Virus record (IMG/VR): IMGVR_UViG_2563366825_000008
Source of the DNA: a virus
Taxonomy: Duplodnaviria > Heunggongvirae > Uroviricota > Caudoviricetes
Reading direction: 5' to 3' (one strand)
Length of the DNA stretch: 6,528 nt
The position numbers and the translations under genes were made by a program. Each line of letters opens with the position of its first letter. The stretch's first letter is position 1. This document shows positions 1 through 6,528 of the stretch, one piece after another. Under the pieces are notes generated by a model that saw only the letters and a program-made list of their open reading frames with translations, was not told where the DNA came from and searched no databases.

Positions 1-642
1 CCCTGCGTGAATATCTCCGGTGAGCCAGAGGATTATTTCCGGATGTCGCCGGAGGACTGGCTGCAGGCAGAAATGCAGGGTGAGATTGTGGCGCTGGTCC
101 ACAGCCACCCCGGTGGTCTGCCCTGGCTGAGTGAGGCTGACCGGCGGCTGCAGGTGCAGAGTGATTTGCCGTGGTTGCTGGTCTGCCGGGGGGCGATTCA
201 TAAGTTCCGCTGTGTGCCGCATCTCACCGGGCGGCGCTTTGAGCACGGGGTGACGGACTGTTACACGCTGTTCCGGGATGCTTATCATCTGGCGGGGATT
301 GAGATGCCGGATTTTCATCGCGAGGATGACTGGTGGCGTCACGGTCAGAATCTCTATCTGGATAATCTGGAGGCCACAGGGCTGTATCAGGTGCCGTTGT
401 CAGCGGCGCAGCCGGGCGATGTGCTGCTGTGCTGTTTTGGTTCATCGGTGCCGAATCATGCCGCCATTTACTGCGGCGACGGCGAGCTGTTGCACCATAT
501 TCCTGAACAACTGAGCAAACGAGAGAGGTATACAGACAAATGGCAGCGACGCACACACTCCCTCTGGCGTCACCGGGCATGGCGCGCATCTGCCTTTACG
601 GGGATTTGCAACGATTTGGCCGCCGCATCGACCTTCGTGTGA
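1..642 (+). CDS. K: Tail tip assembly protein K, 5'-truncated by the window edge; JAB/MPN (JAMM) metallopeptidase-like domain followed by NlpC/P60 cysteine peptidase-like domain
   Basis: Frame 1 is open from nt 1 (translation begins PCVNISGEPEDYF...) to TGA at 640-642. The Met at nt 7 in the ORF track is internal, not the true start. JAMM-type motif HSHPGGLPWLSEAD (H-x-H-x7-S-x2-D) is encoded at nt 100-141. A candidate NlpC/P60 catalytic Cys lies in GVTDCYTLF (codon 259-261), with downstream His in PNHAAIY (codon 457-459) and LLHHIPE. The product is recognised as lambda gpK-like from memory. Confidence 0.88.
   Translation, partial: PCVNISGEPEDYFRMSPEDWLQAEMQGEIVALVHSHPGGLPWLSEADRRLQVQSDLPWLLVCRGAIHKFRCVPHLTGRRFEHGVTDCYTLFRDAYHLAGIEMPDFHREDDWWRHGQNLYLDNLEATGLYQVPLSAAQPGDVLLCCFGSSVPNHAAIYCGDGELLHHIPEQLSKRERYTDKWQRRTHSLWRHRAWRASAFTGICNDLAAASTFV
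521..528 (+). promoter_or_regulatory. Candidate Shine-Dalgarno (GAGAGAGG) for gene I, lying inside the 3' end of K
   Basis: Purine-rich GAGAGAGG sits 11 nt upstream of the I start codon at 540. The spacing is on the long side. Confidence 0.35.
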
Positions 643-1211
643 AAACGGGGGCTGAAGCCATCCGCGCACTGGCCACACAGCTCCCGATGTTTCGTCAGAA
701 ACTGAGCGACGGCTGGTATCAGGTACGGATTGCCGGGCGGGACGTCAGCACGTCCGGGTTAACGGCGCAGTTACATGAGACTCTGCCTGATGGCGCTGTG
801 ATTCATATTGTTCCCAGAGTCGCCGGGGCCAAGTCAGGTGGCGTATTCCAGATTGTCCTGGGGGCTGCCGCCATTGCCGGATCATTCTTTACCGCCGGAG
901 CCACCCTTGCAGCATGGGGGGCAGCCATTGGGGCCGGTGGTATGACCGGCATCCTGTTTTCTCTCGGTGCCAGTATGGTGCTCGGTGGTGTGGCGCAGAT
1001 GCTGGCACCTAAAGCCAGAACTCCCCGTACACAGACAACGGATAACGGCAAACAGAACACCTATTTCTCCTCCCTGGATAACATGGTTGCCCAGGGTAAT
1101 GTTCTGCCGGTTCTGTACGGTGAAATGCGCGTGGGGTCACGCGTGGTTTCTCAGGAGATCAGCACGGCAGACGAAGGGGATGGTGGTCAGGTTGTGGTGA
1201 TTGGTCGCTGA
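540..1211 (+). CDS. I: Tail tip assembly protein I (223 aa); ubiquitin-like/beta-grasp N-terminal part ending in Gly-Gly, followed by a Gly/Ala-rich hydrophobic segment
   Basis: ATG at 540 to TGA at 1209-1211. The translation MAATHTLPLASPGMARICLYGDLQRFGRRIDLRVKTGAEAIRALATQLP... is recognised as lambda gpI-like. It overlaps the K 3' end by 103 nt in a different frame. Residues about 100-157 (nt 837-1010) form a GxxxG/AxxxA-rich hydrophobic stretch (GGVFQIVLGAAAIAGSFFTAGATLAAWGAAIGAGGMTGILFSLGASMVLGGVAQMLAP). Confidence 0.92.
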   Translation: MAATHTLPLASPGMARICLYGDLQRFGRRIDLRVKTGAEAIRALATQLPMFRQKLSDGWYQVRIAGRDVSTSGLTAQLHETLPDGAVIHIVPRVAGAKSGGVFQIVLGAAAIAGSFFTAGATLAAWGAAIGAGGMTGILFSLGASMVLGGVAQMLAPKARTPRTQTTDNGKQNTYFSSLDNMVAQGNVLPVLYGEMRVGSRVVSQEISTADEGDGGQVVVIGR

Positions 1212-1229
1212 TGCAAAATGTTTTATGTG

Positions 1230-1259
1230 AAACCGCCTCCGGGCGGTTTTATCGTTTAT
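1230..1259 (+). terminator. I-J intergenic stem-loop with downstream U-rich tract; possible weak intrinsic terminator, attenuator or RNA-stability hairpin
   Basis: Perfect inverted repeat AAACCGCC (1230-1237) / GGCGGTTT (1242-1249) around a 4-nt loop TCCG, followed by TATCGTTTAT. The 60-nt I-J spacer is otherwise unexplained. Confidence 0.35.
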
Positions 1260-1263
1260 GGAG
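1260..1263 (+). promoter_or_regulatory. Shine-Dalgarno (GGAG) for J
   Basis: GGAG lies 8 nt upstream of the J ATG at 1272. An in-frame TGA at 1266-1268 excludes a longer N-terminus. Confidence 0.6.
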
Positions 1264-1271
1264 CATGACGA

Positions 1272-4200
1272 ATGGGTAAAGGCAGCAGTAAGGGGCATAC
1301 CCCGCGCGAAGCGAAGGACAACCTGAAGTCCACGCAGCTGCTGAGTGTGATCGATGCCATCAGCGAAGGGCCGGTTGAAGGTCCGGTGGATGGATTAAAA
1401 AGCGTACTGCTGAACAGTACGCCGGTGCTGGACAGTGAGGGGAATACCAATATATCCGGCGTCACGGTGGTGTTCCGGGCCGGTGAGCAGGAGCAGACAC
1501 CGCCGGAGGGATTTGAATCCTCCGGCTCCGAGACGGTGCTCGGTACAGAAGTGAAATATGACACGCCGATCACCCGGACCATCACGTCGGCAAACATTGA
1601 CCGTCTGCGTTTTACTTTCGGCGTGCAGGCACTGGTGGAAACCACCTCAAAGGGGGACAGGAATCCATCGGAAGTCCGCCTGCTGGTTCAGATACAACGT
1701 AACGGTGGCTGGGTGACGGAAAAAGACATCACCATTAAGGGTAAAACCACTTCACAGTATCTGGCCTCGGTGGTGGTGGATAACCTGCCGCCGCGCCCGT
1801 TCAGTATCCGGATGCGCAGGATGACGCCGGACAGCACCACAGACCAGCTGCAGAACAAAACGCTCTGGTCGTCATACACCGAAATTATCGATGTGAAACA
1901 GTGCTACCCGAACACGGCACTGGTCGGCGTGCAGGTGGACTCGGAGCAGTTCGGCAGCCAGCAGGTGAGCCGTAATTATCATCTGCGCGGGCGTATTCTG
2001 CAGGTGCCGTCGAATTATACCCCGCAGACGCGGCAATACAGCGGTATCTGGGACGGAACGTTTAAACCGGCATACAGCAACAACATGGCCTGGTGTCTGT
2101 GGGATATGCTGACCCATCCGCGCTACGGCATGGGGAAACGTCTTGGTGCGGCGGATGTGGATAAATGGGCGTTGTATGTTATCGGCCAGTACTGCGACCA
2201 GTCAGTGCCGGACGGCTTTGGCGGCACGGAGCCGCGCATCACCTGTAATGCGTACCTGACCACACAGCGCAAGGCGTGGGATGTGCTCAGTGATTTCTGC
2301 TCGGCGATGCGCTGTATGCCGGTATGGAACGGGCAGACGCTGACGTTCGTGCAGGACCGACCATCAGATAAGGTGTGGACCTATAACCGCAGTAATGTGG
2401 TGATGCCGGATGATGGCGCGCCGTTCCGCTACAGCTTCAGCGCCCTGAAGGACCGCCATAATGCCGTTGAGGTGAACTGGATTGACCCGAACAACGGCTG
2501 GGAGACGGCGACAGAGCTTGTTGAAGATACGCAGGCCATTGCCCGTTACGGTCGTAATGTCACGAAGATGGATGCCTTTGGCTGTACCAGCCGGGGGCAG
2601 GCACACCGCGCCGGGCTGTGGCTGATTAAAACTGAACTGCTGGAGACGCAGACCGTGGATTTCAGCGTGGGTGCTGAAGGGCTTCGCCATGTACCGGGCG
2701 ATGTCATTGAAATCTGCGATGATGACTATGCCGGTATCAGCACCGGTGGTCGCGTGCTGGCGGTGAACAGCCAGACCCGGACGCTGACGCTCGACCGTGA
2801 AATCACGCTGCCATCCTCCGGTACCACGCTGATAAGCCTGGTTGACGGAAGTGGTAATCCGGTCAGCGTGGAGGTTCAGTCCGTCACCGACGGACTTAAG
2901 GTGAAAGTGAACCGGGTTCCTGATGGCGTTGCAGAATACAGTGTGTGGGGGCTGAAGCTGCCGACGTTGCGTCAGCGCCTGTTCCGCTGTGTGAGTATCC
3001 GTGAGAACGATGACGGCACGTATGCCATCACTGCCGTGCAGCATGTACTGGAAAAAGAAGCCATCGTGGATAACGGGGCGCACTTTGACGGCGACCAGAG
3101 CAGCACGGTGAATGGTGTCACGCCGCCAGCGGTGCAGCACCTGACCGCCGAAGTCACCGCAGACAGCGGGGAATATCAGGTGCTGGCGCGCTGGGACACG
3201 CCGAAGGTGGTGAAGGGCGTGAGCTTCCTGCTCCGTCTGACCGTAACAGCGGATGACGGCAGTGAGCGGCTGGTCAGCACGGCCCGGACGACGGAAACCA
3301 CATACCGCTTCACGCAACTGGCGCTGGGGAACTACAGGCTGACAGTCCGGGCGGTAAATGCGTGGGGGCAGCAGGGCGATCCGGCGTCGGTATCGTTCCG
3401 GATTGCCGCACCGGCAGCACCGTCGAGGATTGAGCTGACGCCGGGCTATTTTCAGATAACCGCCACGCCGCATCTTGCCGTTTATGACCCGACGGTACAG
3501 TTTGAGTTCTGGTTCTCGGAAAAACGGATTGCTGATATCAGGCAGGTTGAAACCACAGCCCGCTATCTTGGCACGGCGCTGTACTGGATAGCCGCCAGTA
3601 TCAATATCAAACCGGGCCATGATTATTATTTTTACGTTCGCAGTGTGAACACCGTTGGCAAATCGGCATTCGTGGAGGCTGTTGGTCAGCCGAGTGATGA
3701 TGCATCCGGCTATCTGGATTTTTTCAAAGGCGAGATAGGGAAAACCCATCTGGCTCAGGAGCTGTGGACGCAGATTGATAACGGTCAGCTTGCGCCTGAC
3801 CTGGCTGAAATCAGGACGTCCATTACGGATGTCAGCAATGAAATCACGCAGACCGTCAATAAGAAACTGGAAGACCAGAGTGCGGCAATTCAGCAGATAC
3901 AGAAGGTTCAGGTTGATACAAATAATAACCTGAACAGCATGTGGGCTGTGAAGCTGCAGCAGATGCAGGACGGACGCCTTTATATCGCGGGTATTGGTGC
4001 CGGTATTGAGAACACCCCTGACGGCATGCAGAGTCAGGTGCTGCTGGCGGCGGACAGGATTGCGATGGTTAATCCTGCGAATGGCAACACAAAACCGATG
4101 TTTGTTGGTCAGGGCGATCAGATATTCATGAACGACGTGTTCCTGAAACGCCTGACGGCCCCCACCATTACCAGCGGTGGAAATCCACCGGCATTTTCCC

Positions 4201-4751
4201 TGACACCGGACGGAAAGCTGACTGCTAAAAATGCGGATATCAGTGGCAGTGTGAATGCGAACTCCGGGACGCTCAACAACGTCACGATTAATGAGAACTG
4301 TCAGATTAAGGGGAAACTGTCAGCCAATCAGATTGAAGGCGATATTGTCAAAACAGTGGGTAAGGCTTTCCCGCGGGACTCCCGGGCACCGGAGCGGTGG
4401 CCATCAGGGACCATTACCGTCAGGATTTATGACGATCAGCCTTTTGACAGGCAAATTGTTATTCCAGCGGTGGCATTCTGCGGCGCTAAACATGAGCGGG
4501 AGAATAACGATATTTATTCGTCATGCCGCCTGATAGTGAAGAAAAATGGTGCTGAAATTTATAACCGTACCGCGCTGGATAATACGCTGATTTACAGTGG
4601 TGTTATTGATATGCCAGCTGGTCACGGCCACATGACGCTGGAGTTTTCGGTGTCAGCATGGCTGGTAAATGACTGGTATCCCACAGCAAGTATCAGCGAT
4701 TTGCTGGTTGTGGTGATGAAGAAAGCCACCGCAGGCATCAGTATCAGCTGA
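1272..4751 (+). CDS. J: Central tail fibre / host specificity protein J (1159 aa), tail tip protein with FN3-like internal modules and a variant C-terminal receptor-binding region
   Basis: ATG at 1272 to TGA at 4749-4751, with a good SD. The N-terminus [42 protein letters not shown]... and most of the first ~800 residues are recognised as lambda gpJ-like. The conserved stretch [60 protein letters not shown] is present. The C-terminal ~150 aa differ from my recollection of lambda J. Confidence 0.95.
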
Positions 4752-4768
4752 ATTTTATAACCCATATA

Positions 4769-4795
4769 CGGGCGCCAGAAATGGCGCCTTTTTTA
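4769..4795 (+). terminator. Rho-independent terminator downstream of J
   Basis: Stem GGCGCCA (4771-4777), loop GAAA, stem TGGCGCC (4782-4788), followed directly by TTTTTTATT. On the minus strand the hairpin is not followed by a U-run, so it is + strand specific. Confidence 0.7.
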
Positions 4796-4807
4796 TTGCA
4801 GAAAAGC

Positions 4808-4813
4808 GAGAGG
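4808..4813 (+). promoter_or_regulatory. Shine-Dalgarno (GAGAGG) for lom
   Basis: GAGAGG lies 5 nt upstream of the ATG at 4819. Confidence 0.6.
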
Positions 4814-4818
4814 TAATT

Positions 4819-5418
4819 ATGCGTAAAGTTTGTGCAGCCATTTTGTCCGCAGCCATCTGTCTGGCCGTATCCGGTGCGCCTGCATGGGCGTCTGAGCAGC
4901 AGGCCACACTGAGCGCAGGGTATCTTCATGCCCGTACGAACGCTCCCGGCAGCGATGATCTGAACGGGATTAACGTGAAATACCGTTATGAGTTTACGGA
5001 CACGCTGGGGCTGATTACGTCATTCAGTTATGCCAACGCTGAAGATGAGCAAAAAACGCATTACAGCGATACCCGCTGGCATGAAGATTCCGTGCGTAAC
5101 CGCTGGTTCAGCGTGATGGCGGGGCCGTCTGTGCGCGTGAATGAATGGTTCAGCGCGTATGCGATGGCGGGTATGGCTTACAGCCGTGTTTCGACTTTCT
5201 CCGGAGATTATATCCGCGTAACTGACAACAAGGGGAAAACGCACGATGTGCTGACCGGAAGTGATGACGGTCGCCACAGCAACACGTCTCTGGCGTGGGG
5301 GGCTGGCGTGCAGTTTAACCCGACCGAATCCGTGGCCATTGATATTGCTTATGAAGGCTCCGGCAGTGGTGACTGGCGCACTGACGGTTTCATCGTGGGT
5401 GTCGGTTATAAATTCTGA
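4819..5418 (+). CDS. lom: Lom-like outer membrane protein (Ail/Lom/PagC/OmpX family 8-stranded beta-barrel), 199 aa with N-terminal signal peptide
   Basis: ATG at 4819 to TGA at 5416-5418. The N-terminus [24 protein letters not shown]|SEQQ looks like a Sec signal peptide with an AxA cleavage site. The C-terminus ...[28 protein letters not shown] ends in an aromatic residue (OMP beta-signal) and matches my recollection of the lambda Lom C-terminus. The position immediately after J is as in lambda. Confidence 0.9.
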
Positions 5419-5444
5419 TTAGCCAGGTAACACAGTGTTATGAC

Positions 5445-5471
5445 AGCCCGCCGGTTCAGGCGGGCTTTTTT
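5445..5471 (+). terminator. Rho-independent terminator downstream of lom
   Basis: Stem AGCCCGCC (5445-5452), loop GGTTCA, stem GGCGGGCT (5459-5466), then a T-run to 5471. Confidence 0.75.
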
Positions 5472-5482
5472 GTGGGGGGAAT

Positions 5483-6528
5483 ATGGCAGTAAAGATTTCA
5501 GGTGTACTGAAAGACGGCACAGGAAAACCGGTGCAGAACTGCACAATCCAGCTGAAAGCTAAACGTAACAGTACCACGGTGGTGGTGAACACGCTGGCAT
5601 CTGAAAATCCGGATGAAGCCGGGCGTTACAGCATGGACGTTGAGTACGGTCAGTACAGCGTTATTCTGTTGGTGGAAGGGTTCCCGCCGTCACATGCCGG
5701 GACCATCACCGTGTATGAAGATTCCCGACCCGGTACGCTGAATGATTTTCTCGGTGCCATGACGGAGGATGATGCCCGTCCGGAGGCTCTGCGCCGTTTT
5801 GAGCTGATGGTGGAAGAGGTGGCGCGTAACGCGTCCGCAGTGGCACAGAACACGGCAGCCGCAAAGAAGTCAGCCAGCGATGCCGGCACATCTGCCCGTG
5901 AGGCGGCAACCCATGCGACTGATGCTGCAGACTCAGCACGCGCAGCCAGCTCGTCAGCCGGACAGGCCGCGTCGTCGGCTCAGTCAGCGTCTTCCAGCGC
6001 AGGAACGGCATCAGCAAAGGCCACTGAAGCATTAAAAAGTGCTGCCGCTGCAGAGTCCTCAAAAAGCGCGGCAGCTACCAGTGCCAGTGCCGCGAAAACG
6101 TCTGAAACGAATGCTGCAGCGTCACAACAATCAGCAGCCACTTCTGCATCCACCGCGACTACGAAAGCGTCAGAAGCTGCCATCTCAGCCCGGGATGCGT
6201 CGGCTTCAAAAGAGGCGGCAAAATCATCAGAAACGAACGCATCCTCGAGCGCCAGTAGCGCAGCTTCCTCGGCAACGGCGGCAGCAAATTCCGCGAAGGC
6301 GGCAAAAACGTCCGAGACGAACGCCAGGTCTTCTGAGACGGCAGCGGGACAGAGCGCCTCAGCTGCGGCAGGCTCAAAAACAGCGGCTGCGTCGTCTGCC
6401 AGTGCCGCGTCAACAAGTGCCGGGCAGGCCTCAGCCAGTGCCACCGCCGCCGGAAAATCGGCAGAAAGCGCCGCATCATCCGCTTCAACAGCCACAACGA
6501 AGGCTGGCGAAGCCACTGAACAGGCCAG
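5483..6528 (+). CDS. stf: Side tail fibre protein Stf, N-terminal part; 3'-truncated by the window edge and therefore absent from the ORF track
   Basis: ATG at 5483, preceded by a G-rich SD (GGGGGGA, 5474-5480). Frame 2 is open through the end of the window (about 348 codons). The translation MAVKISGVLKDGTGKPVQNCTIQLKAKRNSTTVVVNTLASENPDEAGRYSMDVEYGQYSVILLVEGFPPSHAGTITVYEDSRPGTLNDFLGAMTEDDARPEALRRFELMVEEVARNAS... is recognised as lambda Stf (orf-401)-like, followed by an Ala/Ser/Thr-rich low-complexity shaft region. Confidence 0.85.
   Translation, partial: MAVKISGVLKDGTGKPVQNCTIQLKAKRNSTTVVVNTLASENPDEAGRYSMDVEYGQYSVILLVEGFPPSHAGTITVYEDSRPGTLNDFLGAMTEDDARPEALRRFELMVEEVARNASAVAQNTAAAKKSASDAGTSAREAATHATDAADSARAASSSAGQAASSAQSASSSAGTASAKATEALKSAAAAESSKSAAATSASAAKTSETNAAASQQSAATSASTATTKASEAAISARDASASKEAAKSSETNASSSASSAASSATAAANSAKAAKTSETNARSSETAAGQSASAAAGSKTAAASSASAASTSAGQASASATAAGKSAESAASSASTATTKAGEATEQA
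6089..6329 (+). repeat. Degenerate in-frame repeats inside stf encoding A-A-K-[ST]-S-E-T-N-A motifs within an Ala/Ser-rich tract
   Basis: Three related ~30-nt units: GCCGCGAAAACGTCTGAAACGAATGCT (6089-), GCGGCAAAATCATCAGAAACGAACGCA (6215-) and GCGGCAAAAACGTCCGAGACGAACGCC (6299-), each encoding AAK(T/S)SETNA. Confidence 0.55.

Follow-up and report, generated by a model that had tools for sequence, protein, structure and literature searches.

The distal third of an intact lambdoid J gene is very probably built from exchangeable modules, and it ends in a tip that probably binds OmpC. The gene lies on KE136669.1, a contig of the draft NCBI assembly GCA_000407805.1; this entire contig of 6528 bp, on which a lambdoid prophage has its distal tail genes, is the stretch of DNA analysed here and is called the window below.

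Gene J and its neighbours

What kind of protein does the window encode? Its genes stand in the order K–I–J–lom–stf, annotated likewise in lambda, in PhiR55_1, in 2G7b and in the prophage of E. coli ATCC 8739. K, present as its 3′ part (with NlpC/P60 and JAB, by Pfam), comes first in the window, and I (Lambda_tail_I, also by Pfam) lies between K and J. Gene J itself (nt 1272–4751, plus strand) is an uninterrupted frame with no stops over its 1159 residues, compared with 1132 in lambda J; the same length of 1159 is found in PhiR55_1 and ATCC 8739. Six Pfam gpJ models match the protein in the order FNIII-A_GpJ, Phage-tail_3, Ig_J, Ig_J_second, Phage_Tail_Tip and Ig_GpJ_C, with E values from 1e-31 to 1e-43, far above the gathering scores. 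Phage_Tail_Tip covers aa 872–1000 and Ig_GpJ_C (PF12421) aa 1029–1159 (E = 2.6e-37). By its domain architecture, its gene context and its full-length frame, the protein is a lambda-type tip attachment protein J, the central tail fibre protein.

Downstream of J, on the same strand, a consensus scan finds a terminator-like hairpin with a T run (nt 4770–4797), situated between J and lom; phage 21 has an annotated terminator at the matching position after J. The lom gene (nt 4819–5418, plus strand), which encodes an Ail/Lom outer-membrane β-barrel (Pfam Ail_Lom, E = 1e-126), is a further diverged module. It is 61% identical in nucleotides to the lambda lom and 98% identical to that of ATCC 8739, and phage 21 is without lom. 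The last gene called is stf, for the side tail fibre, which is present as its 5′ part (nt 5483–6528, plus strand) and runs off the contig. This part is 81–88% identical to lambda stf, and after nt 5760 it is 55–57% identical to PhiR55_1, 2G7b and phage 21; in its N-terminus, stf resembles lambda more than it does the phages with which J has its tip in common.

Modules of J and their nearest relatives

How far does J follow lambda, and what does it follow where it departs? To answer this, we made a global protein alignment against lambda gpJ (P03749, from J02459) and a blockwise nucleotide comparison with five sequences: lambda, phage 21, PhiR55_1, 2G7b and the ATCC 8739 prophage. Domains of the central fibre (shaft, β-prism and Ig tip) are named after the scheme of PMC11101478. 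All segments described below lie on the plus strand.

Over aa 1–820 there are about 21 differences from lambda, an identity of roughly 97%, in agreement with the first-pass annotation, which had described the first 800 or so residues as lambda-like. The underlying scaffold (nt 1272–3690), comprising the hub domains and two FNIII/Ig domains, is 95.9% identical in nucleotides to lambda; indeed it is 95–97% identical to all five comparators, except for a patch of about 90% at nt 2836–3015. The proximal junction (nt 3680–3731) occupies the end of FNIII-2 and includes the conserved motif GYLDFFKG (aa 813–820). From nt 3680 on, mismatches to lambda are dense, and by nt 3732 they have become continuous.

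The first divergent block (nt 3732–4094, aa 821–941) is only 33% identical to lambda in amino acids and has a net insertion of 28 residues. Its nucleotide identity to lambda falls to 45–47% (46.6% in the blockwise comparison), and to 2G7b it is 46.0%. On the other hand, the block is 97.0% identical to phage 21, 98.1% to PhiR55_1 and 100% to ATCC 8739; in amino acids the agreement is 118/121 with phage 21 and 121/121 with PhiR55_1. Alignment to the lambda domain scheme places this block in the α-helical shaft and the upper β-prism, outside the receptor binder. Judged by these identities and by the 28 additional residues within its 121, it represents the long-shaft variant of the phage 21 type.

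The block is followed by a conserved island (nt 4095–4275, aa 942–1001) in the lower β-prism. It corresponds to lambda residues 914–973, matches them at 58 of 60 positions and contains a perfect run of 52 nt at nt 4224–4275. At 93.9% over nt 4095–4275, or 94%, lambda is its nearest relative, the other comparators reaching 86–89%. The island is the site of both a natural and an engineered recombination joint.

Beyond the island, identity to lambda drops again, to 55% over nt 4276–4751. The neck (nt 4276–4361, aa 1002–1030) agrees with lambda at 17 of 29 residues (59%) and with PhiR55_1 at 25 of 29, and is 86% identical to the tip called 1A2; it is A8-like, for 28 of its 29 residues are those of the A8 gpJ chain in 9wca. 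The Ig-like receptor-binding domain (nt 4362–4748, aa 1031–1159), recognized by Pfam, identity and fold, retains 54 of 129 residues of the lambda Ig domain, which spans lambda aa ~1003–1132 (42%; 59% in nucleotides). Its close relatives are PhiR55_1 (125/129, 97%) and 2G7b (122/129, 95%), followed at some distance by phage 21 (63%) and A8 (76/125, 61%).

Since identity to lambda shifts stepwise by 40–50 points at sharp block boundaries, and the divergent blocks are 92–100% identical to other sequenced phages or prophages, the pattern is not due to chance. The breakpoints that had been proposed from inspection (about nt 3730, about nt 4090–4290 and the end at nt 4751) prove accurate to within about 15 nt. 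The alignment with lambda gpJ and other lambdoid J proteins thus maps the identity breakpoints and confirms the mosaic, and with 42% identity in the Ig domain it excludes the possibility that the last 150 or so residues are essentially those of lambda. The earlier description of the divergent sequence as a C-terminal receptor-binding region holds for the Ig domain (aa ~1031–1159, PF12421), but not for the first divergent block, which belongs to the shaft and upper prism.

Recombination, divergence in place or assembly artefact

If the blocks are so sharply bounded, by what process were they brought together? The nearest neighbour of J, as measured by blockwise nucleotide identity, changes from block to block. 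Two of the comparators are particularly instructive. The J of 2G7b combines a lambda-type shaft with a window-type tip, while that of phage 21 combines a window-type shaft with an A8-like tip (105 of 130 residues identical to A8). From these opposite combinations it follows that the shaft and tip modules assort independently, and independent assortment is a signature of recombination rather than of local divergence. These comparisons support the view, already put forward in the first-pass annotation, that the distal third of J is a recombinational mosaic. We note in addition a probable further crossover at the boundary between neck and Ig domain, which would make the mosaic finer-grained than was first described. 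The exchange of distal modules may proceed through homology within the island, which is conserved in all of the lambdoid J proteins compared.

Might the divergent blocks instead have arisen in place, by point mutation under selection, so that the tip could still use LamB? Diversifying selection is known to act on receptor-binding domains, and the fold of the tip is conserved with that of lambda. However, the blocks have only 46–59% nucleotide identity to lambda, far beyond the divergence of about 4% in the flanks, and with sharp boundaries they match at 92–100% phages that differ elsewhere. In view of this blockwise identity to other phages we reject divergence in place, a reading to which we attach next to no probability. 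We likewise reject a LamB-binding tip, given the 42% identity to the lambda domain together with the activity of 1A2 in lamB-deleted cells, in which wild-type lambda gpJ is inactive (PMC11338833, source data for Extended Data Fig. 2).

A second concern is that the mosaic is an artefact, the draft contig having been pieced together or condensed from several lambdoid prophages resident side by side. The window is after all a whole contig whose ends fall within repeated prophage genes; in E. coli genomes that match the region at all, the median number of matching places is three; and the exact 1159-residue protein is on record for this one contig. Against this, the finished genome of ATCC 8739 matches nt 3600–5200, a stretch containing all the distal breakpoints, at 100% identity, and the sequenced phage PhiR55_1 has a J of the same architecture and length. 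The identity to a complete genome rules out a chimera in the distal part, and an artefactual origin of the mosaic is most improbable. The proximal 3.6 kb, which differ from ATCC 8739 by 3–4%, might represent several prophage copies merged into a consensus, since the exact protein is recorded for this contig only.

We infer, then, that recombination assembled the distal third of J. It had also been suggested that a variant domain was acquired on a conserved lambda scaffold. The mosaic part of that suggestion stands, but its polarity is arbitrary, because the window form is common among E. coli prophages and the lambda form is rare.

Predicted structure of the shaft and tip

What might these modules look like? 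An AF2 model of aa 972–1159 was built on 28 homologues, the homologue search having returned mostly partial E. coli fragments. It gives a confident β-sandwich for the Ig domain (pLDDT 77–96). Against this model Foldseek ranks 9wca and 9wcb highest (A8 gpJ, unbound and OmpC-bound), followed by 8xck and 8xcj (lambda gpJ, unbound and LamB-bound). The prediction for the C-terminal end is accordingly an Ig-like β-sandwich, a fold common to the A8 and lambda tips. By sequence, too, the closest PDB entry is ‘A8 gpJ 713’ (9wca/9wcb, E = 5e-129), the title of 9wcb being ‘Open state of A8 gpJ 713 central tail fiber with OmpC G17 from E. coli EDL933’.

For the shaft region we used a single-sequence AF2 prediction of low confidence (pLDDT 46), which places helices at aa 812–836 and 842–899 with a break at NGQLAP. 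The heptad signal of the shaft is modest. A longer helical shaft in the window J is plausible, if weakly supported.

The receptor of the tip

If the tip no longer resembles that of lambda, to which receptor does it bind? The most informative comparison is with the work of Brödel et al. (Nature 2024, PMC11338833), in which the C-terminal parts of natural E. coli gpJ variants were joined to lambda gpJ at residue 964, a junction that falls within the conserved island. The A8 and 1A2 chimeras delivered DNA to cells from which lamB as well as ompC had been removed, but only if a plasmid provided OmpC (PMC11338833). A8 used the OmpC of MG1655 (K-12) and that of EDL933, 1A2 only that of EDL933, and one or both of the two were active on 21 of 23 OmpC variants (PMC11338833).

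The 1A2 tip was read, by frameshift-tolerant alignment, from an OCR-derived, codon-recoded DNA listing with indels in the supplement of PMC11338833. Five positions of this sequence are ambiguous, and a few of the mismatches may be OCR errors. At unambiguous positions the window agrees with 1A2 in 136 of 153 cases over aa 1002–1159 and in 112 of 121 (93%) in the Ig domain, with no indels. On the strength of this high identity and matching indel pattern, we class the window tip as a 1A2-type domain. It is not of the A8 type: the Ig domain lacks close identity to A8, and only the neck and the C-terminal tail match, although the fold is shared. Nor, at 42% amino acid identity, does the sequence class it with the LamB-binding domain of the lambda type. 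Because the tip is of the 1A2 type, OmpC is the best-supported candidate receptor of the window allele, by homology. The earlier proposal that its receptor specificity differs from that of lambda is borne out to this extent: the tip is 42% identical to a LamB-binding domain, about 93% identical to the OmpC-dependent 1A2 and 97% identical to PhiR55_1.

The PhiR phages were reportedly isolated by Brenes & Laub in 2025. No outer-membrane receptor is given for PhiR55.1 in the SNIPE paper.

Might a few substitutions be enough to redirect the tip to another outer-membrane protein, for example OmpF or another porin, or to a narrow set of OmpC variants unlike that of 1A2? Four substitutions separate the Ig domain from that of PhiR55_1 (window residue first: C1070S, N1078H, N1079T and K1090R), and 1A2 departs from it at about nine of the 121 readable positions. 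Several of these lie in or near HERENND, a segment in which A8 carries a 5-aa insertion and which is plausibly a receptor-contact loop. Since some of them lie in a segment that is variable in indels, the OmpC allele preference could differ from that of 1A2. Moreover, A8 and 1A2 share a receptor yet differ in allele range at 61% identity, and lambda J can be turned to OmpF by a handful of point mutations (a case discussed in PMC11101478). But the domain is 93–97% identical to a proven OmpC-type domain, OmpC is the receptor throughout the 1A2/A8 clade as far as it has been tested (PMC11338833), and the identical domain occurs widely among E. coli, with 105 records at 99% or more. We regard such a redirection as unlikely, and an OmpC-binding tip remains the preferred reading.

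How would an OmpC-binding tip act? Judged by its homology to 1A2 and its more distant homology to A8, the tip, a trimer, would most likely insert its bottom loops into OmpC, the outer-membrane porin, and not into LamB. Among OmpC alleles it would be expected to show a preference like that of 1A2, taking in the EDL933 type and many other variants but not the OmpC of K-12. In lambda, binding to LamB opens the receptor-binding domain, twists the prism and flips the shaft, which partly refolds (residues 841–861 passing into β-structure); this refolding frees the FNIII strings and opens the tail. Binding to OmpC may similarly trigger the refolding of β-prism and helical shaft that opens the tail.

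There is a small chance that the window J is more than another member of this series. The substitutions at C1070, N1078/N1079, K1090 and D1134 might shift the set of OmpC alleles used, or the combination of a long shaft, an A8-like neck and a 1A2-type tip might alter the length of the fibre or the kinetics of its triggering. Were either so, the window would hold a functionally distinct host-range variant and not another copy of a known type.

Prevalence and significance

How common are the two kinds of tip? Of 5426 complete E. coli genomes, 3804 have matches to the window-type tip (nt 4290–4751), including the 105 records mentioned above, and 3621 to the long shaft block. The lambda tip finds matches in only 98, all at 99% or more, and the matches listed come from laboratory strains, with several DE3 derivatives among them. 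In E. coli prophages, then, the window tip is the rule and the lambda tip the exception. Of the records in the phage collection, 56 have this tip at 90–95% amino acid identity, among them many Stx-converting phages of O157.

The finding is in essence already known, because the modular exchange of J and OmpC-type tips have been published and the identical sequence is annotated in many RefSeq genomes; such tips have been structurally characterized and put to use in engineering, OmpC-specific ones already serving in therapeutic lambda particles. What the window adds is a finely resolved example of the natural joints, at the end of FNIII-2, in the island at lambda residues 914–973 and, probably, at the boundary of neck and Ig domain. 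It is also a reminder that the LamB-binding tip is rare among E. coli prophages and the OmpC type common. For annotation, J proteins with such a C-terminus may be taken as probable OmpC binders.

Comparison with known systems

How does the window J stand beside the J proteins already described? With lambda gpJ (P03749; 8IYK, 8XCK, 8XCJ) it shares the position of the gene, the six-domain architecture and the Ig-like fold of the tip. The lambda block of shaft and upper fibre is, however, 28 residues shorter, and lambda binds LamB where the window type would bind OmpC.

The 1A2 tip has the Ig length, the indel pattern and the C-terminal tail of the window, and differs by substitutions at C1070, N1078/N1079, K1090, D1134 and S1157. 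It was borne on the short shaft of lambda, whereas the window tip sits on a long shaft of the phage 21 type. A8 gpJ (9WCA, closed; 9WCB, open with EDL933 OmpC) is the best match to the window in the PDB by both sequence and fold, and its last 20 or so residues are identical to those of the window. Its Ig domain is set apart by indels of 4 and 5 aa (RDSRAPERW in the window and RTN----SY in A8; HE-----RENND in the window and HENFNSNNQQSY in A8). Phage 21 J (OL657228) has a long shaft block like that of the window but an A8-like tip.

Two systems are closer still. The J of PhiR55_1 (PV340571) matches the window over its full length; the differences lie in the island (89% nucleotide identity), the neck (84%) and gene I (74%). 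The prophage at the ydfJ/Qin locus of ATCC 8739 (WP_000515744.1) is identical to the window over nt 3600–5200, a stretch that takes in the J–lom spacer and most of lom; over nt 1–3600 it diverges by 3–4%, and stf differs in places as well.

Proposed exchanged segments within J

How is the distal block of J itself assembled? Across window 4276–4365, the neck (J aa 1002–1030) matches the gpJ of A8 (PDB 9wca), one of the natural E. coli tip types, at 28 of its 29 residues. The Ig domain that lies 3' of the neck is of the 1A2/PhiR55_1 type, its identity to A8 being 61%. The aligned sequences point to an additional crossover within the distal block, in this same interval.

A smaller irregularity lies in the J scaffold. 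Window 2836–3015 (J aa 522–581) shows about 90% identity to each of the five comparators (lambda, phage 21, PhiR55_1, 2G7b and the E. coli ATCC 8739 prophage), the surrounding scaffold standing at 95–97%. This patch may be another small exchanged segment.

Genes flanking J

Upstream of J, the gene I of PhiR55_1 (L002 1892–2440) has 74% nucleotide identity to window 643–1211, while the window's gene I is 98–99% identical to those of lambda and phage 21. This difference marks a further module boundary, upstream of J.

What of the genes that follow J? The window carries a diverged allele of lom (4819–5418, Ail/Lom, 199 aa), with nucleotide identities of 61% to lambda lom, 87–89% to those of PhiR55_1 and 2G7b and 98% to that of ATCC 8739. 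Phage 21 is without lom at the corresponding position. Terminator-like GC hairpins, each with a T run, lie on the + strand directly 3' of J (4770–4797) and directly 3' of lom (5445–5476); the scan found three terminator-like sites, against 0.9 expected from shuffles. The N-terminal region of stf (window 5483–6528) is 81–88% identical in nucleotides to lambda stf but, after nt 5760, only 55–57% identical to the phages having the window's J tip. Lambda is thus nearer in this region than those phages are, and the mosaic therefore extends downstream of J. The Ala-rich antisense ORF at 5980–6516 probably arises only because the stf coding sequence is repetitive and rich in Ala and Ser.

Distribution of the tip types

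A search of 5426 complete E. coli genomes with the LamB-type tip of lambda (query L001 5440–5904, the 3' end of lambda J) gave matches in only 98, none of them below 99% identity; the five matches listed are all from laboratory strains, including several DE3 derivatives. Matches to the window-type tip occur in 3804 of these genomes. The exact full-length J protein has a sole record, contig KE136669.1 (GCA_000407805.1), whose entire length is window 1–6528. Its ends fall within K and within stf, a typical picture for prophage pieces bounded by repeats in draft assemblies. The complete genome best matching the whole window, at 97.7%, is that of E. coli SCU-104. There, at L005 4272–9179, the annotation gives J as a pair of pseudogene fragments, which apparently reflect a partial duplication together with a frameshift; the J of the window is intact.
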